A DNA stretch of 64,000 nucleotides from Candidatus Micrarchaeota archaeon. GTDB taxonomy: Archaea; Micrarchaeota; Micrarchaeia; Anstonellales; Bilamarchaeaceae. Made by a program: the position numbers and the translations under genes. This document shows, piece after piece, positions 1 through 63,650 of this stretch; positions within the stretch are counted from its first letter, which is position 1, and every line of letters starts with the position of its first letter. The notes beneath the pieces are model-generated. The model was not told the origin of the DNA. It made no database searches and saw only the letters and a program-made list of their open reading frames with translations. The stretch spans positions 74,440 to 138,439 of the forward strand of contig JBFMEZ010000025.1 of assembly GCA_040753215.1 (NCBI GenBank). Direction: 5' to 3'.

Positions 1-261
1 CGTGGTGGGGTAGCGCGTGTGCGCAATCCCGGCGCTCCCGTTCATATCCATATCCTTCTCAGAGAATATGCGCGAGACCAGCCCAATCCCCCTCTTCTCC
101 TCCAGTTTTTTACCGTTGTAGACCGCCATGCCCGCGGCATCCTGGCCCCTGTGCTGGAGCGCGAGCATGCCGTTGTAAACGTAGTTAGCCACGGGCTTGC
201 CGGTTTTGGACAGCACGGCGACTATGCCGCAGCTCTCCCGTTTTCCGTTCCCGGTTTTCAT
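1..261 (-). CDS. purF: Amidophosphoribosyltransferase (PurF-like class II glutamine amidotransferase), N-terminal part; the gene continues beyond the window start
   Basis: Reverse-complement translation reads MKTGNGKRESCGIVAV...YNGMLALQHRGQDAAGMAVYNG. It has a propeptide followed by a nucleophile Cys and an LQHRGQDAAG motif, as in PurF. The six-frame track only lists ATG-containing ORFs, so this partial gene is not in it. Confidence 0.55.
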   Translation of the reverse strand, partial: MKTGNGKRESCGIVAVLSKTGKPVANYVYNGMLALQHRGQDAAGMAVYNGKKLEEKRGIGLVSRIFSEKDMDMNGSAGIAHTRYPTT

Positions 262-443
262 ATCTCTGCGGAGATAACTTGCAGAAACCTGCCGGTTTCC
301 GCAATCCGGTTTCCAGTGCGCCGGCTCGTTTTCCATATCACATCTTTGCCGTTGATGTTTTAAAAACATCGTTTTGCCCTGCTGAATTGTAACCATGGTT
401 ACAAACCAGTTCTCAGTTTCCAGTTCCCTGTTTTCGAAACAGG

Positions 444-5064: not shown

Positions 5065-6402
5065 CTAAACAGCCTTCCTTATTATTTCCCTCGCCTTCCC
5101 CGCAACCTTGTCCAGCAATTCCTTATTCTTCGCTTCGGCCGTCAGTCTGATTATGCTTTCAGTTCCGGAAGGCCTAACAAGAACCCAATACCCTTCTCCA
5201 TCTATCCGTATCCCGTCCCCGGTTTCCAGTTTCCAGTTGCCGGTTTCCCGTTTCCAGCCTGATTCAAGCTCCGGCATTATCCTTTCCATCGCCTTTTTCC
5301 TGTCCGCAGTCTTATACTTCTCCCTGACCATTGGATTGGGTTTAAACCGGGCCGCAAGCGCACTGAATTTCCCTTTCTCACAGAACATCTCCACAAACTT
5401 CGCGGCAGCCATTACCCCATCAGGCACAAGCACTCCCCCCCTAAAGATGTACTCCCCAGCCGGCTCACCGCCAAAGACCCCCTCGCTCTTCACCATCTCC
5501 TCGCTCACATGCACGCTCCCCACAGAAGTCAAAACAAACTCCACCCCATTCTTCTCAACCGTCTCCTTCACAATGAGCGAGCTCTCCACCGTGCTCACCA
5601 CCTTCCCCTTCTTCTTTGCCAGCTCTTCCTCAATCATAAGCGCAAGTTGCACATCCGCATTCAAAAGCTCCCCTCTCTCATCCACAACTGCGCACCTGTC
5701 CGCATCCCCATCATGCGCAATGCCCAAATCCGCCCCGCATGCCCGTACCGCAGCAGAAAGCCAGGGCAGATTCTCCTTATTCGGCTCAGAAGGCCGGTTG
5801 AACCCCCTGGTTTCGCAGTTCAAGGATACAACCCTGCACCCCAGCTCCCTAAGAAGATAGGGCGTAACCACCGCCCCTGCCCCATTGCAGTCCACAACAA
5901 CCTTCGGCTTCTTCTTCGCAATCAGTTTCGCATCCACATTCCTCTTCACAAGTTCAACATATTCAGGAATTACATCCTCAACCCTCCTTCCCCCTGGAAA
6001 AGCCCCGTATTCCATCCCCTTTTCATATCTTTCCAGAACCCGCTTCTCTTCGTTTCTGCTTATCTCCCGCCCTTTTCTCATGAATTTCAAGCCATTATAC
6101 TCGGCCGGATTATGGGAAGCCGTAACCATCATCCCCCCGCACCCGAATTTCATGCTCGCAAAAGCCACTAAAGGAGTAGGCACAATCCCCAGCCCGATCC
6201 CATCATGCCCCGAACCCAAAACCCCACTCATGGCCGCAAAAGCCAGCGGAACCCCGCTCTCCCGCGTATCCCTTCCTATGCAGACATCTGATTCGGCAAA
6301 TGCATTTGCCATCCTTAACGCTAACTCAGGCGTAATCTCCTTTCCATAGATTCCCCTTATCCCCGAAGTCCCAAACATCGGTTTCCTATTCCCCAAAAGC
6401 AA
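5065..6402 (-). CDS. glmM: Phosphoglucosamine/phosphohexose mutase (GlmM/ManB family)
   Basis: The TASHNP phosphoserine motif, GIRG, and a C-terminal LVRPSGTE motif are present. A GTTTCC heptamer array is inserted in frame near the C-terminus (WKRETGNWKLETG). Confidence 0.8.
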   Translation of the reverse strand: MLLGNRKPMFGTSGIRGIYGKEITPELALRMANAFAESDVCIGRDTRESGVPLAFAAMSGVLGSGHDGIGLGIVPTPLVAFASMKFGCGGMMVTASHNPAEYNGLKFMRKGREISRNEEKRVLERYEKGMEYGAFPGGRRVEDVIPEYVELVKRNVDAKLIAKKKPKVVVDCNGAGAVVTPYLLRELGCRVVSLNCETRGFNRPSEPNKENLPWLSAAVRACGADLGIAHDGDADRCAVVDERGELLNADVQLALMIEEELAKKKGKVVSTVESSLIVKETVEKNGVEFVLTSVGSVHVSEEMVKSEGVFGGEPAGEYIFRGGVLVPDGVMAAAKFVEMFCEKGKFSALAARFKPNPMVREKYKTADRKKAMERIMPELESGWKRETGNWKLETGDGIRIDGEGYWVLVRPSGTESIIRLTAEAKNKELLDKVAGKAREIIRKAV

Positions 6403-6475: not shown

Positions 6476-8341
6476 ATGGCAGGCCAGAACGGAGATTCAA
6501 AAGCCCCACGGCAGGCAGTGGTTCCCCCAGAGCCGGGGCCGCCGGCCAGGAGGCTCGAATCCCGTGTCCCCACGCTCCCGCCCCAGGCTCCAGCACAGCC
6601 CAAGCCCCTGGTCGCAGGAATAGACAGGGCAGCAGGAATAAAGCCCTCTCAATCAACGGTTCCAGGGAGAACGCGGCCAAGGATTACCCGCATTTCCGAG
6701 TATCTCGCCGAGCTTAGGAGGATGGAAATGGCGCAGTCCCCCCCGCCCGCCGCGAGATTTGACAGGGACACGTACGAATTCATGCAGGGGTTGCGCGGAA
6801 AGGTTCAGGAGAGAAGGGAGCCGATGGACTGGTCCGGCATAGGCTGCGTAAAAGAAGCGCCTGCCCCGCATTCGCTCGTGGATACGCTCACAAACGGTTT
6901 CCCGGCAGCCGCGGAAGTGCCGGCCGGGGCTCCGCCAGGCACCGACGGGCTGCTTTCAAAGGAGCTGTGGGTTGAAGCCGGCCTCCCGCGCCTGCGCAAG
7001 AAGAAGCCGGCATCCATTGATGAGCCCCCTGACATCAAGAAGCGCCTTGACCAGTGGTGCCTTTCGCTTGACCATCCCGCAAAGGAGGTCCTGCTCAATT
7101 CCCTCATAGAGGACGCGGTCTCCGAATTCTCGGCCCTGAAGCGCGCGTCAAAGGGCCTGGTGACCGTCTGCTCCGGAGGAAGGCCCGACTACCTTCTCGA
7201 AGCCGAGGTCGGCGCACCGGTCGGCAACATCTCAGCCCAGTTCCTCAGGAAAATGAACACAATGAGAAAGCATGGCATTCTCCCGGAAGCGGACGCAAAG
7301 GCGCTGGTTGAGCAGCTCGTCCGCTTCGTCTTCCACAATCCCGGCCCGGTGGAGGGCCCCGGCATAACAGAGGCCGGCATGAGGAACGGCTTCTTCCGCG
7401 CTGTCACATGGTGCATATGCACGTGCACGAACCCCTCCCTGTTCCAGGAATTCTTCTCGAAGAACAACATACTGCTCATAGATGCGGTCGGGATAGCGGC
7501 AGGCCTCAATTCAGACGAGGCCAGGGCAGTTATGGGCGATGCGGGCGTTCGCTCCGCGCTTTACAGGCTCCTGAAAAAGAGGTGGGTGGCCACAGGTTTC
7601 GAGCACCTCAAGGAGACGCTAAGGGCGGACAGCGCCAGGGGGTTGCTCGACCCAAGGGCTGCGTTCCACTTCACCACGGTCCTTTTCAGGGAGGCCGGCG
7701 AATACCAGCGCATCGTACAGTCCTACTCCATACTCGCAAGGAACATGAGCAACCTTAAGGTAGTATCCCCCTCGCGCGGCATTCTTTACCTAAGCGAGAG
7801 GGAGTTCATCGCCTGCCTCAGGTCTAGGGGAAACCTGCAGCCCAGGCTCAGGGCCGGGATAGACAGGATGCACGAGTTCATAGCCGGGCTTTTCGCAGGC
7901 AGGGCAAAGGGTTCTGGCCAGGAGGAACACCAGTATGCGGTGGGCAGGAGCCCGGCGGAGATATCCGGGATATTCAACACGGTCCTTGAGGGGCTGGATT
8001 TTTTCATCGGAGACCCCAAGATGCGCAGGATGGCCCTGGAGGCGATACAGCACTATGGGATAGGGGGCGGGGAGGGCCAGCCGGCTTCCTTCAAGAAGAT
8101 ATTCGCGCTCTGCCTCTTCACGCGCTACAGGGACGTGCAGGATTACGGCAGGCTCTTCAGGCTGCTCTTCGACTATTCTGACCCAATAGTCTCGGACCTG
8201 GCCCTGGACCATGCCGCGTGGCTTCTGGCGCAGGAGGCAAACTTCATCCTGCTGCGCGAGGAAAAGCCGCGGGAGTCCGCCGCCACCCTAAGCCCGGAGG
8301 ACCTCGCGCAGATACTCGCGGAAGGGGATTCCCCGTTCTGA
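6476..8341 (+). CDS. Hypothetical protein with Pro-rich N-terminus and no recognisable domain
   Basis: 621-aa ORF with coding-like composition. A TATA-like sequence lies about 27 nt upstream. Confidence 0.45.
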   Translation: MAGQNGDSKAPRQAVVPPEPGPPARRLESRVPTLPPQAPAQPKPLVAGIDRAAGIKPSQSTVPGRTRPRITRISEYLAELRRMEMAQSPPPAARFDRDTYEFMQGLRGKVQERREPMDWSGIGCVKEAPAPHSLVDTLTNGFPAAAEVPAGAPPGTDGLLSKELWVEAGLPRLRKKKPASIDEPPDIKKRLDQWCLSLDHPAKEVLLNSLIEDAVSEFSALKRASKGLVTVCSGGRPDYLLEAEVGAPVGNISAQFLRKMNTMRKHGILPEADAKALVEQLVRFVFHNPGPVEGPGITEAGMRNGFFRAVTWCICTCTNPSLFQEFFSKNNILLIDAVGIAAGLNSDEARAVMGDAGVRSALYRLLKKRWVATGFEHLKETLRADSARGLLDPRAAFHFTTVLFREAGEYQRIVQSYSILARNMSNLKVVSPSRGILYLSEREFIACLRSRGNLQPRLRAGIDRMHEFIAGLFAGRAKGSGQEEHQYAVGRSPAEISGIFNTVLEGLDFFIGDPKMRRMALEAIQHYGIGGGEGQPASFKKIFALCLFTRYRDVQDYGRLFRLLFDYSDPIVSDLALDHAAWLLAQEANFILLREEKPRESAATLSPEDLAQILAEGDSPF

Positions 8342-8462
8342 GTTTCCAGTTTCCGTGTCTCTGCGGAGACAACTCCATGTTGCTTCGGCAACAACTGGCG
8401 AAGTTCTGCGGAACTTCACCATGGCAGAAACCCGCGGGTTTCCGCCATCGGGTTTCCAGTCA
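8341..8462 (+). repeat. Family A structured repeat (copy A1), flanked by GTTTCC heptamers
   Basis: A core of four consecutive hairpins: gtctctgcggagac, ttgcc-tc-ggcaa, gaagttc-tgcg-gaacttc, and atggcagaaacc...ggtttccgccat. It is near-identical to copies at 40809-40900 and 59453-59544. Confidence 0.8.
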
Positions 8463-22507: not shown

Positions 22508-22530
22508 TGCGGCCGCCGGGATTCGAACCC
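22508..22530 (-). other. Displaced 23-nt copy of the tRNA-Gly(TCC) 3' end (T-arm plus acceptor), an att-like duplication
   Basis: Identical to positions 23141-23163 of the intact tRNA. It is separated from the tRNA by the cdd cassette. Confidence 0.8.
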
Positions 22531-22534
22531 TCCC

Positions 22535-22629
22535 AAAAACGCGGAGGGGAGCGCCCCTCCCCATTTTTAGGGTTCATTCTGACCCTCCCCCAACTTCTCT
22601 TTGCAACCCTTTGCCAGTACTCCTTACGC
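22535..22629 (+). repeat. Family B repeat, copy B1
   Basis: It contains aaaacgcggaggggagcgcccctcccca (a near-palindromic hairpin), then ttctgaccctccccc, ctttgcaa, and ...actccttacgc. Nine other copies are present in the window. Confidence 0.8.
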
Positions 22630-22634
22630 AAGGT

Positions 22635-23024
22635 TCAATATGCCTTATCCCAAGGATATGGAAGCAGCTCCCTGAGTTTGGCTACTTTATTTTTTCCAAT
22701 AATAACTTCTGTATCCAGGTTTTCTTCACTAATCTGGCTCATGAACTCTCTGCACGCTCCACACGGAGGGATAATTCCATATTCCGAAACTGCCACTATT
22801 TTCTTTATTTTGTACTCCCCGTTCGTAACCATGGCAGCGATGGCACCCTGTTCTGCACAGAAACCCATGCCAGAGGCGGTGTCTATACTTACGCCCGAAT
22901 AAATAGTGCCTTTATTTGAAATTAGCGCACATCCAACATCCCCGATTGTGAATCCGTGTTTTATCTTTCTCGGCTTCAATATGGATTTGGCCTTCTCAAC
23001 CAGTTGCTCATCCGTTATTTGCAT
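22635..23024 (-). CDS. cdd: Cytidine deaminase
   Basis: The zinc-binding motifs CAEQGAI and PCGACREFM are present. The protein is ~129 aa, starting at MQITDEQL. The gene is markedly AT-rich (~40% GC) relative to its surroundings. Confidence 0.8.
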   Translation of the reverse strand: MQITDEQLVEKAKSILKPRKIKHGFTIGDVGCALISNKGTIYSGVSIDTASGMGFCAEQGAIAAMVTNGEYKIKKIVAVSEYGIIPPCGACREFMSQISEENLDTEVIIGKNKVAKLRELLPYPWDKAY

Positions 23025-23099: not shown

Positions 23100-23140
23100 A
23101 CGGATACCGAAAACCCAAAACGGGAAACAGGAAACTGTTT
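23100..23140 (-). terminator. T-rich GTTTCCN heptamer array immediately 3' of tRNA-Gly(TCC)
   Basis: On the transcribed strand it reads aaaacagtttcctgtttcccgttttgggttttcgg, with several oligo-T runs. An equivalent array follows tRNA-Gly(GCC) at 38521-38559. Confidence 0.5.
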
Positions 23141-23211: not shown

Positions 23212-23287
23212 TCTCCTTTTTACATCGTGAAGCTCGCCATAGCTCGCTTCACTCTGCCTTTGGGTTGCCTCGCTCATGCTGCAGCAT

Positions 23288-23334
23288 TCTGCATCGCTGC
23301 GGCGATGTCTGGCGAAGTTCTGCGGAACTTCACC
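23288..23334 (+). repeat. Family A repeat, partial copy A2
   Basis: It contains the gcatcgctgcggcgatg hairpin followed by tctggcgaagttctgcggaacttcacc. Confidence 0.6.
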
Positions 23335-23396
23335 ATCGCTCGGCGCAAAAAGGAGCCCAAAAACCTCAAGCTCCTTTACCTCATTTCTCTCTACGT

Positions 23397-23448
23397 TTCT
23401 GACCCCCTCCCACTTCACTTTGCAACTCTTTGAACGTACTCCTTACGC
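23397..23448 (+). repeat. Family B repeat, partial copy B2, upstream (on the minus strand) of tRNA-Gly(TCC)
   Basis: Reads ttctgaccccctcccacttcactttgcaactctttgaacgtactccttacgc. Confidence 0.7.
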
Positions 23449-23500
23449 GTGGGGTTCAGTATTTATATTATGGCAAGAGAAGAAAATTAAAAGACCGCGC

Positions 23501-35076: not shown

Positions 35077-35214
35077 TTAGGGGGCACAGTTCCAGTTTCC
35101 TGTATCCGGTTTTCAGTTTCGATTGCTTTATGGCTATGCTTTCCATTTTTGTAGTCCCATCCAATCGGGAAAGTGGAGACTGAAAACCTGTTGCTGGAAA
35201 CCGAAGACTGATTT

Positions 35215-35238
35215 AGCCCCGGAGGGGGATTGAACCCC
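35215..35238 (-). other. Displaced 24-nt copy of the tRNA-Thr 3' end (T-arm plus acceptor)
   Basis: Matches positions 35871-35894 of the intact gene. It is followed directly by B-family copy B4 (35241-35333). Confidence 0.75.
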
Positions 35239-35240
35239 TC

Positions 35241-35333
35241 CAAGAAGAAGGGGGAAGGCGTTCCCCCCTCTCTTTAGGGTAATCATACCCCCCTTCCACT
35301 TCACTTCGTCACTCTTTGCACGTGCTCCTTACG
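35241..35333 (+). repeat. Family B repeat, copy B4
   Basis: Reads aagaagaagggggaaggcgttcccccctctctttagggtaatcata...cttcacttcgtcactctttgcacgtgctccttacgc. Confidence 0.75.
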
Positions 35334-35375
35334 CCCGACCGAAAGAGATTAAATCCACGCCCCAGAACATCTCGT

Positions 35376-35867
35376 ATGCAGATAATCATAAGGAAAGCCC
35401 GCCCGGGCGACATCGAACTGCTCGCGCCCATGTGGAGGGAACTCACCAATTACCATACTATTCTCGCAGCCAGAAATCCGGCAAGAAAAGAGTTTACCGC
35501 AATGGTCGGAAACGCAGAATCACTATGGAGAAAGTGGATTCTGAAATGGATTCGCTCGCCCAACGGGCTCGTGCTGATAGCGGAGCATGCCGGCAAGCCA
35601 GTCGGTTATTCCTTCAATTTCATCAAGAAATCCAATCCGGTGTATCGCGTAAATAAGATGGGCTGCATGAGCGACCTTTACGTCGCACCCGGCTACCGCA
35701 ATAAAGGAATTTCCTCACGATTCAGGGACGAAGCATTCAAGTGGTTCAGAAAGAAGGGCTTGAGGCACGCTTGCATAGGCGCCCACGGCTCCAACAAAAG
35801 AGCCCTGAGCATTTATCGGAAATGGGGTTTCTTCGACTTCTCAGTTGATCTAAGAAAGAGGATATAA
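35376..35867 (+). CDS. GNAT family N-acetyltransferase (cassette cargo)
   Basis: Acetyl-CoA binding motif region GYRNKGISSRF. The protein is ~163 aa starting at MQIIIRKARPGD. Confidence 0.7.
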   Translation: MQIIIRKARPGDIELLAPMWRELTNYHTILAARNPARKEFTAMVGNAESLWRKWILKWIRSPNGLVLIAEHAGKPVGYSFNFIKKSNPVYRVNKMGCMSDLYVAPGYRNKGISSRFRDEAFKWFRKKGLRHACIGAHGSNKRALSIYRKWGFFDFSVDLRKRI

Positions 35868-35870
35868 CCA

Positions 35871-36078
35871 AGCCCCGGAGGGGGATTGAACCCCCGACCT
35901 CTCGCTGTCCCGTTTCCGGTTTCCGCATCTCTGCGGAGATGACTCCGCTTCTCTGCGGAGAAGACTGGCAGAATCCTTCGGGATTCCGCCATGGCAGAAA
36001 CCTGCTGGTTTCCGCCATCCTGTTTCCAGTTCCGAACCGGATTACGAGGCGAGCGCTCTACCGCTGAGCTACCGAGGC
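35871..36078 (-). tRNA. tRNA-Thr (anticodon CGT) with ~136-nt intron (about 35906-36041) in the anticodon loop at or near position 37/38
   Basis: Exon 1 reads GCCTCGGTAGCTCAGCGGTAGAGCGCTCGCCTCGTAA and exon 2 reads GCGAGAGGTCGGGGGTTCAATCCCCCTCCGGGGCT. The anticodon stem is ctcgc/gcgag with loop ctCGTaa. The intron contains a family-A repeat copy. Confidence 0.7.
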
Positions 36079-36080
36079 GC

Positions 36081-36174
36081 AAAGAGGAAGGGGGAAGCGT
36101 TCCCCCTTCTCTTTAGCGTAATCATAACTCCCTTCAACTTTGCTTAGGGGATGCTTTGCTCGTACTCCTTACGC
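36081..36174 (+). repeat. Family B repeat, copy B5, directly upstream of the tRNA-Thr 5' end
   Basis: Reads aaagaggaagggggaagcgttcccccttctctttagcgtaatcataac...ctttgctcgtactccttacgc. Confidence 0.75.
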
Positions 36175-36304
36175 ATTTCTTTGCTCCCCAACTTTTATTA
36201 AATTGAGGAGAACGCCAGGAGCAGGATTTGAACCTGCAATCCCTTGCGGGACTCGTTTTCGAGACGAGCGCGTTCACCGGGCTCCGCCATCCTGGCAGCA
36301 ATTA

Positions 36305-36982
36305 TTATACTCCGCTTATTTTCTTAAACCTGATTGCATCCTCGCCCATAGTAATGTTGTTGAAGAATACGTACTCCGCTCCCCTCGTTTTCTTTGCAAT
36401 TTCCTTTAGCTCCGCATCGCTGAATGTATAATAATACATCATCCTTTCTCCCAATCCGTGCAATCTGTAATACCCAATTTTCCGATGAAAACTCTCCTGC
36501 CTCAAAGGGTCCACAATATGCTCCAGCTCTAGTTCTTCAAATAGGGGCTCCGCAATCTCCCGTGTCCAGTCCTTGCTCCATCTCACCTCCCACCCCAGCC
36601 TAAACTCTTCCCGCTTAATCTTCCCGAAGAATTTCCTCGCCCTCGCAATATTCTCCTTCGTAGGCTTAAATGAAGCAGGAGATTGGAAAACCAGAAAGTC
36701 CGCCCTCAACAATTCCGCAACTTTCTTCGTCTCCCAAAATGCCTTCACCGATTCCGCTCCTCTAAACCTGTCAAAATGCGTCACAGTTCGCAAAACCTTC
36801 AGCGTAAACTCAAACTCCGGATTCACCGAATCCGCCTTCGCCCTCCACTTCTCCGCGGTCTTCAGCATAGGCAGTTTATAGAAGGTGGAATTCACCTCCA
36901 CCGCAGGAAATGCATGCACATAATTCAGCAGCCTGTCTCCCCTCTCAGGAAAAGAAGACCATCCGCAGGTTCCTATTTTCAT
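36305..36982 (-). CDS. DUF72 family protein
   Basis: The N-terminus reads MKIGTCGWS and a YRLHG motif is present. Confidence 0.7.
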   Translation of the reverse strand: MKIGTCGWSSFPERGDRLLNYVHAFPAVEVNSTFYKLPMLKTAEKWRAKADSVNPEFEFTLKVLRTVTHFDRFRGAESVKAFWETKKVAELLRADFLVFQSPASFKPTKENIARARKFFGKIKREEFRLGWEVRWSKDWTREIAEPLFEELELEHIVDPLRQESFHRKIGYYRLHGLGERMMYYYTFSDAELKEIAKKTRGAEYVFFNNITMGEDAIRFKKISGV

Positions 36983-38633: not shown

Positions 38634-38768
38634 CGGCCGCTCCAAGAGGAAGGGGGAGCGCCCCCTTCTCTCTAGGGTACTCATAACCCCCCATCAATTG
38701 CGGGGCTGTGAATTCATTCTGACCCCCTCCCACTTCACTTTGCAATGCTTTACTCGTACTCCTTACGC
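38634..38768 (+). repeat. Family B repeat, copy B6 (long form), upstream of tRNA-Gly(GCC)
   Basis: Reads aagaggaagggggagcgcccccttctctctagggtactcataa...cattctgaccccctcccacttcactttgcaatgctttactcgtactccttacgc. Confidence 0.75.
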
Positions 38769-38853
38769 ATAGGGGCGTGCATCTCTTCTAACCGAAGAGC
38801 ATTCCTATTTTCCAATAAAACCTTTTATTAACTTTCTTGCAGCAATTTGCTCC

Positions 38854-40511: not shown

Positions 40512-40790
40512 ATGGAATATATCATACTCTCACCCTGCACAACCGCAAAGACCCGGGAACTCCGCATGCGCGGCAGGATAGACATCCGCAAGGCGGAGAA
40601 AGCCCTCCCCCCGGAAGCTGATATCCTCGCGTTCACAGAAGTGTTCCTTTCCCTCGCCTACAAGGGAAAACCCTTCTCCCTCTACCCCTCCGGAAAGATA
40701 ATAGTGAAGGATTCGGAGGCGGAAGAGGCGAAGTCCCTTCTGAAGGAGATGTTCTCCCTTTTAGAGAGAAAAGGGTGCCTGAGTGAGTAG
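40512..40790 (+). CDS. Small hypothetical protein
   Basis: 92-aa ORF. Confidence 0.3.
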   Translation: MEYIILSPCTTAKTRELRMRGRIDIRKAEKALPPEADILAFTEVFLSLAYKGKPFSLYPSGKIIVKDSEAEEAKSLLKEMFSLLERKGCLSE

Positions 40791-40808
40791 CCAGTCCCCC
40801 GTTTCCAC

Positions 40809-40900
40809 ATCGCTTCGCGATGACTCCATGTTGCCTCGGCAACAACTGGCGAAGTTCTGCGGAACTTCACCATGGCAGAAACCTTCCGGGTTTCCGCCAT
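40809..40900 (+). repeat. Family A repeat, copy A4, overlapping the 5' end of the PHP gene
   Basis: Reads atcgcttcgcgatgactccatgttgcctcggcaacaactggcgaagttctgcggaacttcaccatggcagaaaccttccgggtttccgccat. Confidence 0.8.
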
Positions 40901-41538
40901 CCAGTTTCCCGAAGCTAAACATTGACTTCCACGTGCACACCTCCTTCTCTTCGGATGGAAGGATAAAATTAGCTGAACTCGCCTCCCTTTCCAAACAATT
41001 CGGAATAATCCCCGCCCTCACCGACCACAACAACATGGATGCCTGCTCCCCCTTCAAAAAATTCGAAATCCCCTTCATCCCCGGAGAGGAAATCCGCGTT
41101 GCACAGGGCGATTTCATAGGCCTCTTCCTCTCCGAGCCGATTCCTGAAGGGATAGATTTCTACGAAGCCCTCGACTTAATCCGTGCGCAGGGAGCCCTCG
41201 CTTATGTCCCGCACATGTTCGACGCACTCCGCCCCGGAGTAGTAAAGGAGGAATACGGAAAAGCCGCAGACATAATAGAAGTATTCAACGCCCGCTCCTT
41301 CGCCCGCTTCGACAGGCAGGCAGAAGAATTCGCCAAAAGGGAAGGCAAATTAATGGCGGCAGGAAGCGACGCCCACTTCCCGTTCGAATTCGGGCACACT
41401 TATACCGAATTAAGCCTCACCCCAGACCAACTGGAACCCAAATCTCTTCTCCGCGCTTTAAAGAATGCGAGAATAGCAGGAAAGCGCACTTCTTTTCTCA
41501 AGAGGAAAATAGCGAAATATACCGGAATCTACATCTAA
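40828..41538 (+). CDS. PHP-domain phosphoesterase; the only in-frame ATG lies inside repeat A4
   Basis: The PHP motif begins at LNIDFHVHTSFSSDG, with a later GSDAH motif. No ATG/GTG/TTG lies between the repeat and the first His motif. The annotated N-terminus MLPRQQLAKFCGTSPWQKPSGFPPSSFPK is therefore repeat-encoded. Confidence 0.6.
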   Translation: MLPRQQLAKFCGTSPWQKPSGFPPSSFPKLNIDFHVHTSFSSDGRIKLAELASLSKQFGIIPALTDHNNMDACSPFKKFEIPFIPGEEIRVAQGDFIGLFLSEPIPEGIDFYEALDLIRAQGALAYVPHMFDALRPGVVKEEYGKAADIIEVFNARSFARFDRQAEEFAKREGKLMAAGSDAHFPFEFGHTYTELSLTPDQLEPKSLLRALKNARIAGKRTSFLKRKIAKYTGIYI

Positions 41539-43816: not shown

Positions 43817-43920
43817 CCAGGGAAGATATCCGCAGATTTGCAGCCTCAGATTGTCGGTTATGGAAGGAAAAAATCCGCAAAAGTTTCCTTCCATGTTAGA
43901 CGCCTTATAGCATCGTTTTT

Positions 43921-44122
43921 CACTGAACCTCCACGGCTCGGTCACACCTTGTAGTCGCCTGCGTGGCGGCGATAGGTCTGCCTAGCCATTGGGTGCGGCT
44001 ACAAGGTGTGAGGAAGCCTCGGCATTTATGCCGGGGAGGAGAGCCGAGGCTTCCTCTAAAGGCAGCAGGAATACATCTGCCCTTTATCTACGAAGAAGCC
44101 ACGGCCTTTAGTGGAGGTTCAC
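43921..44122 (+). repeat. Family C ~200-nt structured repeat, copy C1
   Basis: 99% identical to 46120-46325. The ends (cactgaacctccac...gtggaggttcac) are inverted-repeat-like and can pair. It has internal hairpins (gaggaagcctcggc/gccgaggcttcctc and caccttgtag/ctacaaggtg). Confidence 0.8.
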
Positions 44123-44945: not shown

Positions 44946-44951
44946 TCCCGG

Positions 44952-45020
44952 AAAAACGCGGGGAACCCAGGTTCCCCCCATTTTTACCGTTTATTCTGAC
45001 CCCCTCCTAACGGTTTTCAG
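44952..45020 (+). repeat. Family B repeat, short copy B7, lying between fen-1 and its displaced 3' end
   Basis: Reads aaaaacgcggggaacccaggttccccccatttttaccgtttattctgaccccctcc. Confidence 0.7.
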
Positions 45021-46054
45021 AGCCACTTATCCAATGTTCGTTGGCTTCTTGTTTCTTTTACATTGCTTAGCATTCCCTCTAAAGCTCTTTCTACCCTCTC
45101 CCTTGAGAAATCGTGCTCCTCCACCAACAATTCTATTACTCCCTCCCTGCTCGCCTTCCCCCACCCCAGCTCTCCGACCTCCTTCACTGGCGGGCTCATG
45201 AAAAAACCGAAAATCGCCTCCACATCCTCAGGAAACTCATATCCCTTCTCCTTCTTCAAATATGCCCTCACCTTCTCCAGCGTATCATTCTCTTTCACAA
45301 TCTTCAGACCGGTTTTCGGCCCAATCCCCCGCACCCCTTCATTGAAATCCGTTCCCACAAGAATCCCAATCAAAATCAATTGCTCCCTCTTCAGCCCAAG
45401 CGCCTTCAGCGTCTCTTCCAGCTCCACCCTCTCAATCTCTATATCTATGAACCTATTCTGCTTCGGCACCTTCCTTTTCCCGGTAATGGACAAATTCCTC
45501 AAAAGCACCGGCGACCCAAATAGAACCGAATCATAATCCTGCGATGCGGCCGCATAGCAAAGCCCTGTCCCCACCATCCACGCTGCCTGCGCCTCCCCTT
45601 CAGAGGGCGCCTGCACCCAGGGAATCCCCATCAGTGAAAGCAGCCTCTTCCCCTCATCCACCATCTCCTTGGTGAGCCGCGAGCTTGCCTGCGCATATTT
45701 CCTCGCCTCCTCAATTTTCTCCTCCGCAAGCGCCTTCTTCCATTTGTGCTCCGCCTCCCTCCGCACCTCTATCCTTTCCTCTATAGTTTTCCTCTTGAAT
45801 TCCGGCGGAGGCCCGTCAAACACATAAATAGGTTTTATCCCAGCATTCACCAATCTTATGCTCCTGTAAAATAGCCCAGATAAATGCCCGGTCACCCGCC
45901 CCTTCATATCCATTAAGGGCGTCCCGTCCTCCTGCCTTATGGAAGCCAAAAATTGATAGAGTATATTCATCCCATCTATCGCTATGCTCTTTCCCGCAAG
46001 CTCCTCCAGCTCGACCTTGTGCTTAATTGCAAGGTCGCCCAAATCTACTCCCAT
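45017..46054 (-). CDS. fen: Flap endonuclease 1
   Basis: The XPG-N and XPG-I motifs and the N-terminal sequence MGVDLGDLAIKHKVELEELAGKSIAIDGMNILYQFL are present. The C-terminal PIP-like box reads QRTLDKWL. Confidence 0.9.
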   Translation of the reverse strand: MGVDLGDLAIKHKVELEELAGKSIAIDGMNILYQFLASIRQEDGTPLMDMKGRVTGHLSGLFYRSIRLVNAGIKPIYVFDGPPPEFKRKTIEERIEVRREAEHKWKKALAEEKIEEARKYAQASSRLTKEMVDEGKRLLSLMGIPWVQAPSEGEAQAAWMVGTGLCYAAASQDYDSVLFGSPVLLRNLSITGKRKVPKQNRFIDIEIERVELEETLKALGLKREQLILIGILVGTDFNEGVRGIGPKTGLKIVKENDTLEKVRAYLKKEKGYEFPEDVEAIFGFFMSPPVKEVGELGWGKASREGVIELLVEEHDFSRERVERALEGMLSNVKETRSQRTLDKWL

Positions 46055-46119
46055 CCTAATCCTCGCTTACCTATAATCAGGCATACTTTTATTTCTCTGC
46101 CTGCCGCAGCCGGCAGACT

Positions 46120-46325
46120 CACTGAACCTCCACGGCTCGGTCACACCTTGTAGTCGCCTGCGTGGCGGCGATAGGTCTGCCTAGCCATTGGGTGCGGCTA
46201 CAAGGTGTGAGGAAGCCTCGGCATTTATGCCGGAGAGGAGAGCCGAGGCTTCCTCTAAAGGCAGCAGGAATACATCTGCCCTTTATCTACGAAGAAGCCA
46301 CGGCCTTTAGGCCGTGGAGGGTCAC
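46120..46325 (+). repeat. Family C repeat, copy C2
   Basis: See copy C1. This copy ends in the perfect hairpin gccacggcc-ttta-ggccgtggag. Confidence 0.8.
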
Positions 46326-49467: not shown

Positions 49468-49782
49468 GTGAAGAAAATGGAGGAAAGATTGGAGGAGTTT
49501 GAGGAAATAGAGGAGCCAAAAAAGGGGAGAAAGCCAAGTTCTGATGAGTCCGAATCCGCACCGAGCGAAAGCGTTGGCGCGAGGCCGGACTTCCGCGTGG
49601 TCCAGACCGAAAGGGATGCGGAGGGCAAGACAATATACAAGAACGTGGGTGGGCTCTGGAAGCGCACGAGCAAGAATGGAAACACATACTACAGCATGAG
49701 CATAGGCCGATTGAGGCTGCTCGTATTCCCTAACGACAGGGATGGTGGTTCTTATGGCAGAGAAGACAGAGAAGAAATATGA
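49468..49782 (+). CDS. Hypothetical acidic/basic small protein
   Basis: 104-aa ORF with a strong Shine-Dalgarno-like sequence (aaaaggtgaag) about 8 nt upstream. Confidence 0.4.
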   Translation: MKKMEERLEEFEEIEEPKKGRKPSSDESESAPSESVGARPDFRVVQTERDAEGKTIYKNVGGLWKRTSKNGNTYYSMSIGRLRLLVFPNDRDGGSYGREDREEI

Positions 49783-52252
49783 GCTCCCGAAGGAGCTGGA
49801 GGACCTTCCTGGAATAGGGGAGGCGACCGCGGAGAGGCTGCGCAAGGCCGGTTATACATCTATGGACCAGATTGCGGCCGCGATGCCCCACGAGCTCGCG
49901 GAAGCGGGTGAATTCGGGGCGGAAGCCGCAAAGAAGGCCATCGCAGTTGCGCAGGAAGCTGTGGAGACCGGCTACGAGACCGCGGACCTGATATTCGAGC
50001 GCAGGAAGGAAATCAAGAGGATTCCAACCGGCTCCAAGAACTTCGACGATTTGATTGGAGGCGGAGTGGAGACCCAGGCAATCACCGAGTGCTTCGGAAA
50101 GTTCAGTTCTGGGAAATGTGTTTCCGGGGATACCCCGCTGGTCTTCTTCAATTCCAGCTCCCCGCACATTCGCTCCTTTGAGGACGTATATAATACATAC
50201 AAGACCGAAGAGTTCGAGCAGGATGGCGGCACATTCTCCGTTCCCTCAAAGGAACTGCACGTGCTCAGCCTCGGGGATGACTGCCAATTGAGGAAGGAAA
50301 AGGTCCAGCACCTCTACAAGGAGAAAGTAACTTCGATACAAGAGATGGAAACCTCCCGCGGCTCGGTCATAAAGGCGACGAAGAGGCACCCGCTCCTCGT
50401 TTTCTCAGAAGAAGGGATGGAGTGGAAATCTTCTGGCCTTCTTTCCGAAGGGGCGTACGTTGCGGTGCCAAAAGAGATAAGGACAGAATCAGAGACGGAG
50501 ATAAGCGCAGAGGATGCATATTTCCTCGGCCTCTTTGCCGCTGAGGGTACAGCCAATCCATTCAGCATAACCAACTACGATGAAAAAATAAACGCAAAGC
50601 TGCACGACTACATACGAAAGAGGTTCGGCAGGGAGCCGTCCTTCAGGAAGGAGAGGGGCCTCACGCTCCTTTTCAAGGACGCAGAACCTTTGCTCGGGGA
50701 GCTCGCCTCTTCCAATTCCGGGACGAAGTTCATACCGGACAGCGTGCTCAGCGGAAGTGATGAGATTGCTGCCTCATTCCTGTCGGGCTACATAGATGGC
50801 GACGGCTTCGTCTCCAACTGCCCCGAGCTTTGCACGAAATCCGCAAAACTCGCCTCCCAGCTGACCTACCTCCTTTCCCGCTTTGGGATAGGCTGCTCGG
50901 TCAGGCACAAGAAGGTGGAGGAGAGCAGGTTCTACAGGATTTTCATAACCGACGCAGGAAGCAAAACGCGCCTCATGAAAATCCTGGGCCAGAGCACGAA
51001 GGGCCTGGATGCGCTTTCCTGCGAAGGCAAGCACTCGGAATACGGGATTCCGTCCAAACCATTGCGCACAATCCTGAAGCGGCTGCACGGGAAGCTCTCA
51101 GGCACGCACAGGAGGGACATCTCGGCCAAGAAGGCGGAAATAGCGGAGGGAAAGTTCTTCAGCCTCTATTTTAACTACCTTGCAAGGACTCCCGCGACCC
51201 GCGTGGCCACGGAAGAAACCGTGAAGCTTGCCCTGGATTTCTACAGGGAGAGGGTAGGGAAGATGCGCGGGCACGAGGCGCTCCTCTCGGAGCCAACAAG
51301 TGAAAAAATCCTCAACGCGCTTAGGGACATTCTGTTCAAGAGCACTGCCCTTGTGCAGAGGCTCGGGATAAAGAGGCCGACCTTCCAGAATTTCGTAACC
51401 AGGAAGAAAGTTCCGGAGGAAAGGGTTGCGCAGGTCGCCTCGGCTATCCGCACCCTTATTGCGGAGACTCTCTCGGACCCAGCCCTTGCAAAAGACCTCA
51501 AGACGCTGGAACTGCTCGCAAACGGGAACATGCGCTGGGAAAAGGTCATAAGGATGGAAGAGAAGCCCTACGACGGATATGTGTACGACCTGGTCGTTCC
51601 GGGGGCGCACAACTTCGTCGCTGGCTTCAAGCCGATGCTGATGCACAACACGCAGGTCGGCTTCCAGCTCGCGGTGAACGCCCAGAAGGCCCTCTCAGCC
51701 AACGGAACGCCCGCAAGGGTCCTCTTCATAGACACGGAAAGCACCTTCCGCCCGGAGAGGATAATCCAGATTGCGGAGGCGCAGGGGCTGGATCCGCAGG
51801 AGGTCCTGAAGAACATCCTCGTCGCCAAGGCTGAGAACTCAGACCACCAGCTGATTCTCGTGGAAAAGGCCGGCAACGTAATCGAGAAGGAGAACATTAA
51901 GCTGATAATAGTCGACTCCCTCACCTCCCACTTCCGCGCTGATTACGTAGGCAGGGGCGCCCTTAGCGAAAGGCAGCAGAAGCTGAACAAGCACATCCAC
52001 ACCCTGCAGAAGTATGCGGACAAGTACAACATCGCAATCTATGTGACCAACCAGGTCATGGACAACCCGGGGATTCTTTTCGGGGACCCGACCATGCCGA
52101 TTGGAGGCCACATTTTGGCGCACGCAGCGACCTACCGCCTCTACCTGCGCAAGAGCAAGGAGGAAAAAAGGATTGCGAGGCTCGTGGATTCGCCCAACAT
52201 GCCCGAAGGCGAGACGGTCTTCAAGGTCACGAAGGGCGGCGTAATCGATTAG
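49757..52252 (+). CDS. radA: DNA repair and recombination protein RadA, interrupted by a 511-aa intein with LAGLIDADG homing endonuclease domain (intein approx 50117-51649)
   Basis: The N-terminal HhH reads LPGIGEATAERLRKAGY. The Walker A motif is split GKFSSGK|CVSGDTPL...MLMHN|TQVGF. The intein carries LAGLIDADG motifs YFLGLFAAEG and LSGYIDGDG. The exteins total 325 aa, typical of RadA. Confidence 0.9.
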   Translation, partial: AEKTEKKYELPKELEDLPGIGEATAERLRKAGYTSMDQIAAAMPHELAEAGEFGAEAAKKAIAVAQEAVETGYETADLIFERRKEIKRIPTGSKNFDDLIGGGVETQAITECFGKFSSGKCVSGDTPLVFFNSSSPHIRSFEDVYNTYKTEEFEQDGGTFSVPSKELHVLSLGDDCQLRKEKVQHLYKEKVTSIQEMETSRGSVIKATKRHPLLVFSEEGMEWKSSGLLSEGAYVAVPKEIRTESETEISAEDAYFLGLFAAEGTANPFSITNYDEKINAKLHDYIRKRFGREPSFRKERGLTLLFKDAEPLLGELASSNSGTKFIPDSVLSGSDEIAASFLSGYIDGDGFVSNCPELCTKSAKLASQLTYLLSRFGIGCSVRHKKVEESRFYRIFITDAGSKTRLMKILGQSTKGLDALSCEGKHSEYGIPSKPLRTILKRLHGKLSGTHRRDISAKKAEIAEGKFFSLYFNYLARTPATRVATEETVKLALDFYRERVGKMRGHEALLSEPTSEKILNALRDILFKSTALVQRLGIKRPTFQNFVTRKKVPEERVAQVASAIRTLIAETLSDPALAKDLKTLELLANGNMRWEKVIRMEEKPYDGYVYDLVVPGAHNFVAGFKPMLMHNTQVGFQLAVNAQKALSANGTPARVLFIDTESTFRPERIIQIAEAQGLDPQEVLKNILVAKAENSDHQLILVEKAGNVIEKENIKLIIVDSLTSHFRADYVGRGALSERQQKLNKHIHTLQKYADKYNIAIYVTNQVMDNPGILFGDPTMPIGGHILAHAATYRLYLRKSKEEKRIARLVDSPNMPEGETVFKVTKGGVID

Positions 52253-58888: not shown

Positions 58889-58978
58889 ACTCCTCCCTAA
58901 AACGCGGAGGGGAGCGCCCCTCCCCATTTTGAGGGTTCATTCTGACCCTCCCCCATCTCCCCTTTCCATTGCTTTGCA
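58889..58978 (+). repeat. Family B repeat, copy B9, inserted between rpl39e and rpl31e and flanked by a 15-bp direct duplication (catgctctcactcct)
   Basis: The duplicates at 58870-58884 and 58977-58991 contain the rpl31e RBS/ATG and the rpl39e stop region respectively. Confidence 0.75.
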
Positions 58979-59151: not shown

Positions 59152-59433
59152 CTACTTGAACACGATCTTCGTTTCCCTTTCGCCCCCGCGCATCATCCGC
59201 AGAAGGGCAAGCACTTCCGCATCCCCGAGCTTCTTCCCGCCCCTCTTCGCGTACGCGAGAACCTGCCTCGCGGCAGCGGCATACAGCTCCGGCTTCGCAA
59301 GCCTCACGTTCATGAGCCGCTCATACGCTTCCGGGGTGAGGCAAAGGCGTAGCGCCGCTTTCAGCTGCGCCTCCATCCTTTTCGCTTCCAGGAGCCTTTC
59401 CTCTTCGCTCCCGGCTCCCTCCTCTTCGCCCAT
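59152..59433 (-). CDS. PDCD5/TFAR19-like double-stranded DNA-binding protein
   Basis: The segment LTPEAYERLMNVRLAKPELY matches the family. The position between rps19e and rpl39e is conserved. Confidence 0.7.
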   Translation of the reverse strand: MGEEEGAGSEEERLLEAKRMEAQLKAALRLCLTPEAYERLMNVRLAKPELYAAAARQVLAYAKRGGKKLGDAEVLALLRMMRGGERETKIVFK

Positions 59434-59452
59434 ATAAGTCCCCAGTTTCTAT

Positions 59453-59544
59453 ATCGCTTCGCGATAACTCCATGTTGCCTCGGCAACAACTGGCGAAGTT
59501 CTGCGGAACTTCACCATGGCAGAAACCCCCCGGGTTTCCGCCAT
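59453..59544 (+). repeat. Family A repeat, copy A5 (between rps19e and the PDCD5-like gene)
   Basis: Reads atcgcttcgcgataactccatgttgcctcggcaacaactggcgaagttctgcggaacttcaccatggcagaaaccccccgggtttccgccat. Confidence 0.8.
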
Positions 59545-59570
59545 CCGGTTCCCAGTCCCCGGTTCCGCGC

Positions 59571-63537: not shown

Positions 63538-63650
63538 AAAACGCGGAGGGGGGCGCCCCTCCTCATTTTTTCCTGGATGGTGAAATTCCGCAGAATTTCG
63601 CCAGACATCGCCGCAGCGATGCAGATTTTCTGATCCTCCCCCCACTTCAC
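63538..63650 (+). repeat. Family B repeat (copy B10) with a nested inverted partial family A copy (A6, 63579-63624)
   Basis: Reads aaaacgcggaggggggcgcccctcctca, then rc(tggcgaagttctgcggaacttcacc...), then cctccccccacttcac. It is flanked by ttttcctc-containing direct repeats. Confidence 0.7.

Follow-up and report, generated by a model that had tools for sequence, protein, structure and literature searches.

How tRNA introns are gained in archaea is an open question, and it is raised in a particular form by the tRNA-Thr(CGU) gene at positions 35871–36078 of a 64,000-nt contig stretch of an uncultured Candidatus Micrarchaeota (DPANN) archaeon (JBFMEZ010000025.1; the whole stretch is referred to as the window). 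The anticodon loop of this gene is interrupted by 136 nt that are almost entirely one copy of a repeat, family A, that is also found elsewhere in the window, and one has to ask whether this is an intron that can be spliced, how a repeat came to lie there, and whether the tRNA gene is still functional. We consider it likely that the gene is functional and that its intron, at the canonical position, is one copy of a lineage-specific, modular, DNA-inserting repeat which is predicted to be spliced out. The best reading of the data is that the intron is evolutionarily recent and made of mobile repeat DNA, and that it would be removed from the transcript. An archaeal tRNA intron is thereby tied to a specific repeat family that inserts as DNA.

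The gene was missed when the window was analysed with ARAGORN, and the Rfam covariance model was needed to detect it (46 bits; RF00005, gathering threshold 29), with a full-length alignment that leaves a gap of 138 nt within the anticodon loop. As standard finders, in this case ARAGORN, miss such genes, the tRNA complements of DPANN archaea will be undercounted. On the minus strand, exon 1 reads GCCUCGG UA GCUC AGCGGUA GAGC G CUCGC CU-CGU-A and is followed by the 136 nt, after which exon 2 reads A GCGAG AGGUC GGGGG UUCAAUC CCCCU CCGGGGC U; together they form the anticodon stem CUCGC/GCGAG with the loop CU-CGU-AA. The joined exons (72 nt) are a 100% match to the intronless tRNA-Thr(CGU) of L006, L008, L009, L010, L012, and L013 (such names are labels of the related loci, metagenome-assembled genomes [MAGs] or contigs that were compared with the window), and these intronless genes score 68 bits. 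A 31-nt pattern from exon 1, with which one genome of each species was scanned, yielded eight DPANN/Micrarchaeota MAGs, among them the six just named. Several of the intronless loci retain the cluster of tRNA-Gly, tRNA-Ser, and tRNA-Thr genes together with the neighboring genes, and they can therefore be regarded as orthologues. Because the exons match those of intronless orthologues, a preliminary description of the locus was correct in its account of a cloverleaf formed by two exons, a CGT anticodon, and an insert of about 136 nt.

That description had also placed a family A repeat within the intron, and this statement can now be sharpened, as about 126 of the 136 nt are the family A copy, and the remainder likewise resembles the ends of a defined inserted element, the copy c40793 (coordinates of all features are given in the table below). 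Read along the minus strand, family A consists of GGAAACN heptamers, the hairpins HP1 (GGCGGAAACC/GGUUUCUGCC), HP2, HP3, and HP4, and again heptamers. Repeat finding and an nhmmer profile revealed five copies in the 64 kb, four full ones including the intron and one short one, all on the minus strand, and in addition two sub-modules. Heptamer arrays of the type GGAAACNGGAAAC (at most one mismatch) number 29 in the window, where chance would give 0.30, and the minus strand carries 24 of them. The hairpins, whose loops are mostly C(GNA)G, are constrained: nine distinct HP2–HP4 modules have 99.3% of their cells paired, with two-sided changes in 6 of 15 pairs, and five full copies have 98.5% paired, with two-sided changes in 7 of 30 pairs, while slid controls drop to 30–51%. 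HP1 retains 10/10 pairs in all five copies, and in HP3 of the intron three of five pairs are altered on both sides relative to the other copies with pairing retained. The intron alone folds at z = −7.9 as RNA and at z = −7.7 as DNA, and in four of the five full copies the conserved G.U pairs render the minus-strand fold 5–10 kcal/mol better. Hairpin content and number differ among the copies, as seen with the short copy, the sub-modules, and duplicated HP3/HP4. Of all members of the family, the intron copy has diverged most (76% identity to copy c8342), its sequence is unique, and its HP2 and HP3 are unlike those of every other copy. The repeat matches no Rfam family, and nothing except the tRNA was found in the region 35700–36400 down to E = 1; there are no C/D or H/ACA boxes in the intron sequence. 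Interpretations as a C/D-box RNA, a group I/II intron or another known RNA were dropped, as there was no Rfam match.

That family A inserts as DNA is evident from c40793. In L006, L012, and L014, the orthologues of its two neighboring genes directly adjoin or overlap each other (4201/4206, 3943/3948, and 1849/1853, respectively), and neither hairpins nor heptamers are present between the genes in these three empty sites. This comparison of one filled with three empty orthologous sites indicates that the heptamers, the hairpins, and the second set of heptamers went in together as one DNA unit. The insertion gives the upstream gene a new TAG stop codon. In one frame it also remains open into the PHP-domain gene downstream, a gene that in the relatives overlaps its neighbor. 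The inserted unit has the ends 5′ ...GCTTCGGGAAAC and GGAAACGGGGGAC... 3′, to which those of the intron, 5′ ...GGTTCGGAAC and GGAAACGGGAC 3′, are alike, and the terminus GGAAACGGG(G)GAC is common to the intron 3′ end and the c40793 insertion. As the ends of c40793 resemble those of the intron, the CGGG that takes part in the splice helix described below is element sequence. The ends of the other family A copies are heptamer arrays of variable length. For c40793, there is no evident terminal inverted repeat (TTAGC.../...GGCTA, a 4-nt inverted match only) and no clear target-site duplication, and no transposase, integrase or Y1 transposase (RAYT/TnpA) is encoded among the 50 open reading frames (ORFs) of the window. 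A second comparison of filled and empty sites, at the tRNA-Gly(UCC) upstream region, failed as this region is too rearranged between the window and L001/L034.

Folding of the exon–intron junctions had been proposed as a test for a motif of the bulge–helix–bulge (BHB) type, and the outcome was positive as to the register of the motif but not as to its strictness. Free and constrained folds of the pre-tRNA agree on one structure; its BHB-like motif has both junctions exactly in register, and its helices h, H, and h′ have 5 bp, 4/4 pairs, and 7 bp, respectively. The H helix is formed by the anticodon-loop nucleotides 32–35 (CUCG) and the intron CGGG, and the 3′ half of the motif is canonical, with a clean 3-nt bulge AC^A next to the anticodon stem. 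A 3x2 internal loop, closed by the 7-bp helix UCCGGUU/AACCGGA, surrounds the 5′ site UA^A, so that the motif present in register with both junctions is of the relaxed hBH/bulge–helix–loop (BHL) type. A scan of the window in free register was dropped, since it gave thousands of matches and did not discriminate. Because relaxed patterns are so common when the register is free, an in-register shuffle test was carried out, in which only 197 of 200,000 shuffled introns (0.1%, p ~0.001) passed between the same exons, even at the weaker criterion of h′ ≥ 4 bp. Among six family A copies and sub-modules, the intron copy is the only one with BHB-like bracketing, which is found with 3.2% of random segments. 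An endonuclease that accepts such sites has been described in this phylum: the epsilon2 enzyme of Candidatus Micrarchaeum acidiphilum, an organism in which 56% of the tRNA genes are disrupted, cleaves strict hBHBh′ as well as relaxed hBH/BHL motifs in vitro (PMC3239211), and the same enzyme type is present in Candidatus Mancarchaeum (PMC5829648).

Based on these data, the following sequence of events can be proposed. A repeat unit, or a heptamer array first, would have inserted either directly at 37/38 or within a short intron that was already present there. In the pre-tRNA, the 3′ CGGG of the element would then pair with the anticodon-loop nucleotides, which in the computed structure results in the succession of anticodon stem, 3-nt bulge, and 4-bp helix, and the 7-bp helix closing the internal loop at the 5′ site would be formed partly by the terminal heptamers. 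From the published work on Candidatus Micrarchaeum and Candidatus Mancarchaeum, we would expect a broad-specificity endonuclease to cut both sites, and an RtcB-type ligase would join the exons to a mature tRNA identical to that of the intronless relatives, with release of the hairpin-rich 136-nt intron, probably in circular form. As splicing would erase the insertion at the RNA level, the intron would be a tolerated location for the element. The earlier idea that a tRNA intron can serve family A as a safe harbor is thus supported in a stronger form, namely with insertion at the DNA level, an intron that is about one unit, and BHB-like junctions, the removal by an endonuclease being predicted. 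It is also possible, albeit more doubtful, that tRNA introns of this clade arise de novo by repeat insertion in the anticodon loop, with the element end (…GGAAAC-GGG…) and the heptamers bringing along a motif that can be spliced.

The proposed comparison with the orthologous tRNA-Thr genes of relatives points to a rapid turnover at this site, as these genes are intronless or contain either a heptamer-only intron of 42 nt or an unrelated intron of 56 nt. The window is part of an archaeal chromosome with genes for L44e, S27e, GINS, ThrRS, SecDF, GlnA, ThyX, RadA, FEN1, eIF6, and S19e, and its nearest named relatives are Candidatus Micrarchaeota/Micrarchaeia MAGs; for three window proteins, a search for identical sequences gave no match. 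The 56-nt intron, a single-copy sequence at site 37/38, is found in L011, whose GINS is 91% identical to that of the window, and the genes of L013 (90%) and L010 (89%) are intronless. The heptamer-only intron is that of L001/L034 (86.5%), where it occurs in two independent assemblies and reads A GCCCGCGCC GGAAACU GGAAACC GGCAACA GGAAAC GGGUA. It forms the same H helix as in the window and a clean 3′ bulge, and it has no adjacent h′ and no hairpins; it could either have preceded the full element or have arisen from it by deletion. On a metagenome contig (L023:148-292), a tRNA-Arg(UCU) gene has a 70-nt intron at the canonical position that is built from inverted heptamer arrays, (GTTTCCN)x4 ... 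(GGNAACN)x4, and folds into an hBHBh′ motif of the strict type (h 5 bp, H 4/4 pairs, h′ 9 bp). This intron and the heptamer-array introns of tRNA-Thr(CGU) in the window and in L001/L034, which are found in different genomes, share the repeat unit and no long alignable sequence. The intron state varies among near relatives for tRNA-Thr, tRNA-Ser, and tRNA-Arg. The tRNA-Ser(CGA) of L009 (2856-2974) has its own anticodon-loop insertion of about 37 nt, which is absent from this gene in the window and in L013, and the tRNA-Thr of L007 (6896-7120) has an unrelated 73-nt intron and apparently has a further interruption in the T arm. There is no synteny with L005, the nearest named Micrarchaeia contig, and L035–L037 (GNAT 56% identity) are without the tRNA locus. 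In a neighbor-joining tree of GINS and L44e, the intron-bearing genomes were grouped in 139 of 300 bootstraps, and the window and L001 appeared as sisters in 13 of 200. With support this low, there may have been either a single ancestral gain with turnover of the content or repeated gains.

The surroundings of the gene bear on its functional status. The gene retains the conserved tRNA upstream block, which ends in a hairpin (GGGGGAACGCUUCCCCC and CUUCCUCUUUGC) and probably represents a promoter or leader. This block, in itself a second repeat family of about 100 nt (GCGTAAGGAGTRCG...GAAGTGAAGTGG...TTATGATTACCCTAAAGAGA, a G/C hairpin, and TTCCTCTTKG), precedes every tRNA gene in the window and in the relatives, and some copies have no tRNA after them. 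About 630 bp downstream of the intron-bearing gene lies a dead second tRNA-Thr copy, in which a complete upstream block runs straight into the final 24 nt of the tRNA, with a heptamer trailer and a Fic gene behind it, an order that matches the native tRNA-Thr locus of L006, L010, and L011. The dead copy would imply a past duplication or rearrangement that introduced the GNAT gene. As this second copy is 5′-deleted and dead, no intact copy other than the intron-bearing gene is left at the locus, and it is for this reason, together with the in-register motif, that we favor a spliced functional gene over a pseudogene.

Several points nevertheless weigh against this explanation. The strict hBHBh′ motif is not formed, as two unpaired A residues are located opposite the 5′ bulge, and an alpha4 or alpha2 enzyme that demands the strict motif might not cut this imperfect site. 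No EndA was found among the 50 ORFs of the window or in the gene tables of the compared loci, and epsilon2 is documented for Candidatus Micrarchaeum and Candidatus Mancarchaeum only (PMC3239211, PMC5829648). Relaxed BHB patterns in free register are common by chance, with 5,829 in the 64 kb, and splicing is a prediction from the exons and the fold. The intron may also be older than the repeat, and the intron-bearing clade has a support of just 139/300 in the tree. Finally, undecayed exons would likewise be left by a very recent insertion, and the loss of the gene might be tolerable, as a tRNA-Thr(UGU) could read ACG codons. A rival view is that a recent family A insertion has inactivated the gene, that the transcript is not spliced, and that another tRNA-Thr reads ACG. 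Family A demonstrably enters new DNA sites, the 5′ half of the BHB motif is imperfect, other tRNA decay has occurred at the locus (the fragment 35215–35238), and the identical exons fit a very recent event too. However, we regard such a pseudogene as unlikely, since the insertion is exactly at 37/38 with both junctions in the register of 3-nt bulges around a 4-bp helix (p ~0.001), the intron that a relative carries at this site forms the same H helix, the heptamer-built tRNA-Arg intron has a strict BHB motif, and the upstream block is intact, the decayed copy being the other local one.

A different role for the insert would be compatible with a spliced functional tRNA: family A could be a multi-copy gene for a structured RNA, and the intron would then contain a functional small RNA, in analogy to the C/D-box small RNA of euryarchaeal tRNA-Trp introns. 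Splicing would in this case be one of the ways in which the RNA is made, and the stable and possibly circular intron would have a role of its own. The strong fold (z = −7.9), compensatory changes that keep all four hairpins, G.U pairs that favor the fold of the tRNA-sense strand in four of five copies, and the sense orientation of most copies, which lie either 3′ of a gene or in the upstream region of a tRNA, would agree with this. Pairing is also kept in palindromic mobile DNA, however, and the DNA fold is equally significant (z = −7.7). There is moreover no Rfam match and no C/D or H/ACA box, the copies differ in hairpin content and number, c40793 lies antisense between two operon genes, and the L001/L034 intron is devoid of any hairpin, all of which makes a small RNA rather improbable. 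The preliminary description had further considered this intron as the source of the family, with a dispersal that may involve the splicing or circularization pathway. Such a spread would proceed by reverse splicing or retro-insertion. Archaeal introns are typically circularized, and the intron copy is a complete element. For Thermoproteales, it has been proposed that introns moved from one tRNA gene to another by transposition (Fujishima 2010, cited in PMC4090602). We found no support for such an origin and judge it very unlikely: the heptamers and HP2–HP4 are widespread where tRNA-Thr is intronless, BHB-like flanks are present in none of the five other copies, the intron copy is the most divergent one (76% to c8342) and not a consensus-like source, and the defined insertion c40793 occurred between protein genes with no BHB motif. 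It is hardly conceivable that a repeat-induced assembly chimera split an intronless tRNA gene in two by placing a family A copy in it. Metagenome assemblies do break at family A and at its sub-modules, and many matches are at contig ends, but a chimera would have had to join both junctions at one tRNA nucleotide position and thereby create an in-register BHB motif, the sequence of the intron copy is unique (HP2, HP3), and two independent assemblies of a relative have an intron at the same site.

Table. Features of the tRNA-Thr(CGU) locus and of repeat family A in the window.
Feature	Position	Strand	Basis or remark
tRNA-Thr(CGU) gene, intron-containing, 208 nt	35871..36078	-	Rfam RF00005; spliced sequence equals intronless orthologues
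Exon 1, tRNA positions 1-37, ends ...CUCGC CU CGU A	36043..36078	-	Same in 9 related loci
Exon 2, positions 38-73, A GCGAG...GGGGCU, no encoded CCA	35871..35906	-	
136-nt intron, canonical position 37/38	35907..36042	-	Boundaries fixed by intronless orthologues
Family A copy, 126 of 136 nt of intron	35908..36033	-	nhmmer E = 3e-36
Outer helix h′, 5′ strand UCCGGUU, just past 5′ splice-site bulge UA^A	36035..36041	-	Minimum free energy and constrained folds; in-register test
5′ heptamer units GGAACU GGAAACA GGAU	36017..36033	-	
HP1 GGCGGAAACC-AGCA-GGUUUCUGCC, 10-12 bp stem, conserved G.U pair	35993..36016	-	Folds
HP2 GGCGGAAUCC-CGAA-GGAUUCUGCC	35967..35990	-	Paired compensatory differences relative to other copies
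HP3 UCUC-CGCA-GAGA	35950..35961	-	
HP4 UCUC-CGCA-GAGA	35928..35939	-	
3′ heptamer units GGAAACC GGAAAC GGGAC	35907..35924	-	Hold h′ 3′ strand AACCGGA (35915-35921) and CGGG (35909-35912)
Conserved tRNA upstream block with terminal hairpin	36079..36190	-	Common to other tRNA genes
Upstream-block copies	22529-22635, 23397-23454, 35283-35340, 36090-36190, 38717-38774, 44946-45031, 58892-58977, 63538-63570		
Dead second tRNA-Thr copy	35215..35340	-	Upstream block fused to tRNA 3′ end (35215-35238, exact)
Family A copy c40793, inserted unit of ~131 nt	40788..40918	-	Empty orthologous sites
Family A copy, nhmmer extent of c40793, full	40789..40914	-	
Family A copy c8342, full	8337..8462	-	Between convergent genes
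Family A copy c59437, full	59433..59559	-	Just downstream of S19e gene
Short family A copy, HP1 and HP4 only, with heptamers	242..319	-	
HP2–HP4 sub-module in tRNA-Gly(UCC) upstream region	23286..23339	-	
HP2–HP4 sub-module	63575..63626	+	

Family A and its components are not confined to this locus. HP2–HP4 modules and heptamers are widespread, being found in relatives with an intronless tRNA-Thr and on 20 metagenome contigs, and a scan of viral contigs with the HP2 core gave no match. On the same strand as the tRNA, the HP2–HP4 sub-module lies 45–100 nt upstream of many different tRNA genes (window 23286–23339; L015, L016, L018, L022, L023, L024, and L025). On Ga0068707 contigs, an outer stem GCCCCGCC/GGCGGGG encloses HP2–HP4, with at least 15 identical copies at contig ends. 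T-rich GTTTCCN arrays are present in sense orientation in tRNA 3′ trailers (L006 and L011 downstream of tRNA-Thr; window 23100–23140 and 35160–35210 on the minus strand); they often precede an inverted GGAAACN array, resulting in a hairpin, and may act as terminator or processing signals. The phosphoglucomutase (PGM) gene at 5065–6402 carries an in-frame heptamer array at 5207–5263 (minus strand) that encodes WKRETGNWKLETG, with the heptamer read in all three frames, and that adds only about five residues relative to solved homologues, within conserved coding sequence. The GC skew of the window is very strong and uniform regardless of gene orientation (−0.19 overall, −0.04 to −0.33 per 4 kb), as it is also strong in L001, L034, L010, L016, and L022, and all five full family A copies are on the G-rich strand, as are 24 of the 29 heptamer matches. 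Beyond this family, the RadA/Rad51 recombinase gene at 49742–52252 (plus strand) contains an intein with a LAGLIDADG homing-endonuclease domain, and a 192-nt direct repeat with 99% identity (43920–44111 and 46119–46310) brackets a segment of about 2 kb with methyltransferase and FEN1 genes.

Repetitive extragenic palindromic (REP) sequences and bacterial interspersed mosaic elements (BIMEs), Rickettsia palindromic elements, and MITEs (miniature inverted-repeat transposable elements) are short, hairpin-forming, non-coding, multi-copy repeats that are sometimes tolerated in genes. The euryarchaeal tRNA-Trp intron encodes a C/D-box small RNA. The intron described here shares with the latter the considerable length, the structure, the canonical position, and a possible stable RNA product, and it differs in the absence of C/D boxes and of any Rfam match. 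With the palindromic elements, family A shares that it is short, non-coding, hairpin-forming, multi-copy, mostly intergenic, and built as a modular mosaic (reviewed for MITEs in PMC10969869). A further likeness to these elements is the occasional presence within genes, exemplified by the PGM array and the c40793 stop codon, and the strand-biased orientation. In contrast to these elements, family A is flanked by variable heptamer arrays and has an archaeal host, and there is no RAYT or other transposase among the 50 window ORFs. Compared with MITEs in particular, family A is a short non-coding multi-copy element with presence/absence variation, as they are, and lacks terminal inverted repeats and a target-site duplication at the one defined insertion.

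Among archaeal tRNA introns, those with canonical BHB motifs that are processed by EndA share with the present one the position 37/38, the pairing of the loop with the intron 3′ end, the separation of the bulges by a 4-bp helix, and a normal cloverleaf. Here, however, the 136 nt are nearly all dispersed repeat, and the 5′ bulge faces two unpaired nucleotides instead of forming a strict 3-4-3 hBHBh′ motif. Candidatus Micrarchaeum acidiphilum (ARMAN-2) belongs to the same phylum, has a high turnover of tRNA introns, and tolerates relaxed hBH/BHL motifs, whereas introns that share sequence with intergenic repeats are not described in the respective papers (PMC3239211, PMC3488258, PMC5829648). The closest evolutionary parallels come from Thermoproteales and from Caldiarchaeum subterraneum. 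In Thermoproteales, related intron sequences are found in unrelated tRNA genes, with a gain at the DNA level being inferred; the similarity is among tRNA introns and the transposition, which was deduced from intron–intron similarity, is explicitly said to occur by an unknown mechanism, whereas here the family is mostly intergenic and an insertion outside of tRNA genes is documented (PMC4090602). The tRNA-Thr(GGU) locus of Caldiarchaeum subterraneum, where an intron was gained and tRNA fragments were scattered through a mobile element, likewise shows intron heterogeneity, at the population or species level, and a nearby tRNA fragment, but the element there is 1.8 kb in size and encodes a recombinase, whereas the element described here has about 130 nt, is non-coding, and has no recombinase nearby (PMC3293823). 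In the open-access literature, we came across no archaeal tRNA intron reported to consist of a repeat that is dispersed between genes.

In conclusion, the states of this one gene among close genomes, namely an intronless gene, an intron of heptamers only, the complete element, and an unrelated intron, constitute a system in which the BHB-forming end of the element itself, the tolerance of the endonuclease for the 5′ site, and the mobilization of the repeat can be tested. If the insertion indeed arrives in a form that can be spliced, this would be a directly observed gain of an archaeal tRNA intron, complete with donor family, empty-site control, and intermediate states. Seldom can selfish repeat DNA be seen so directly to occupy, and possibly to create, an archaeal tRNA intron.

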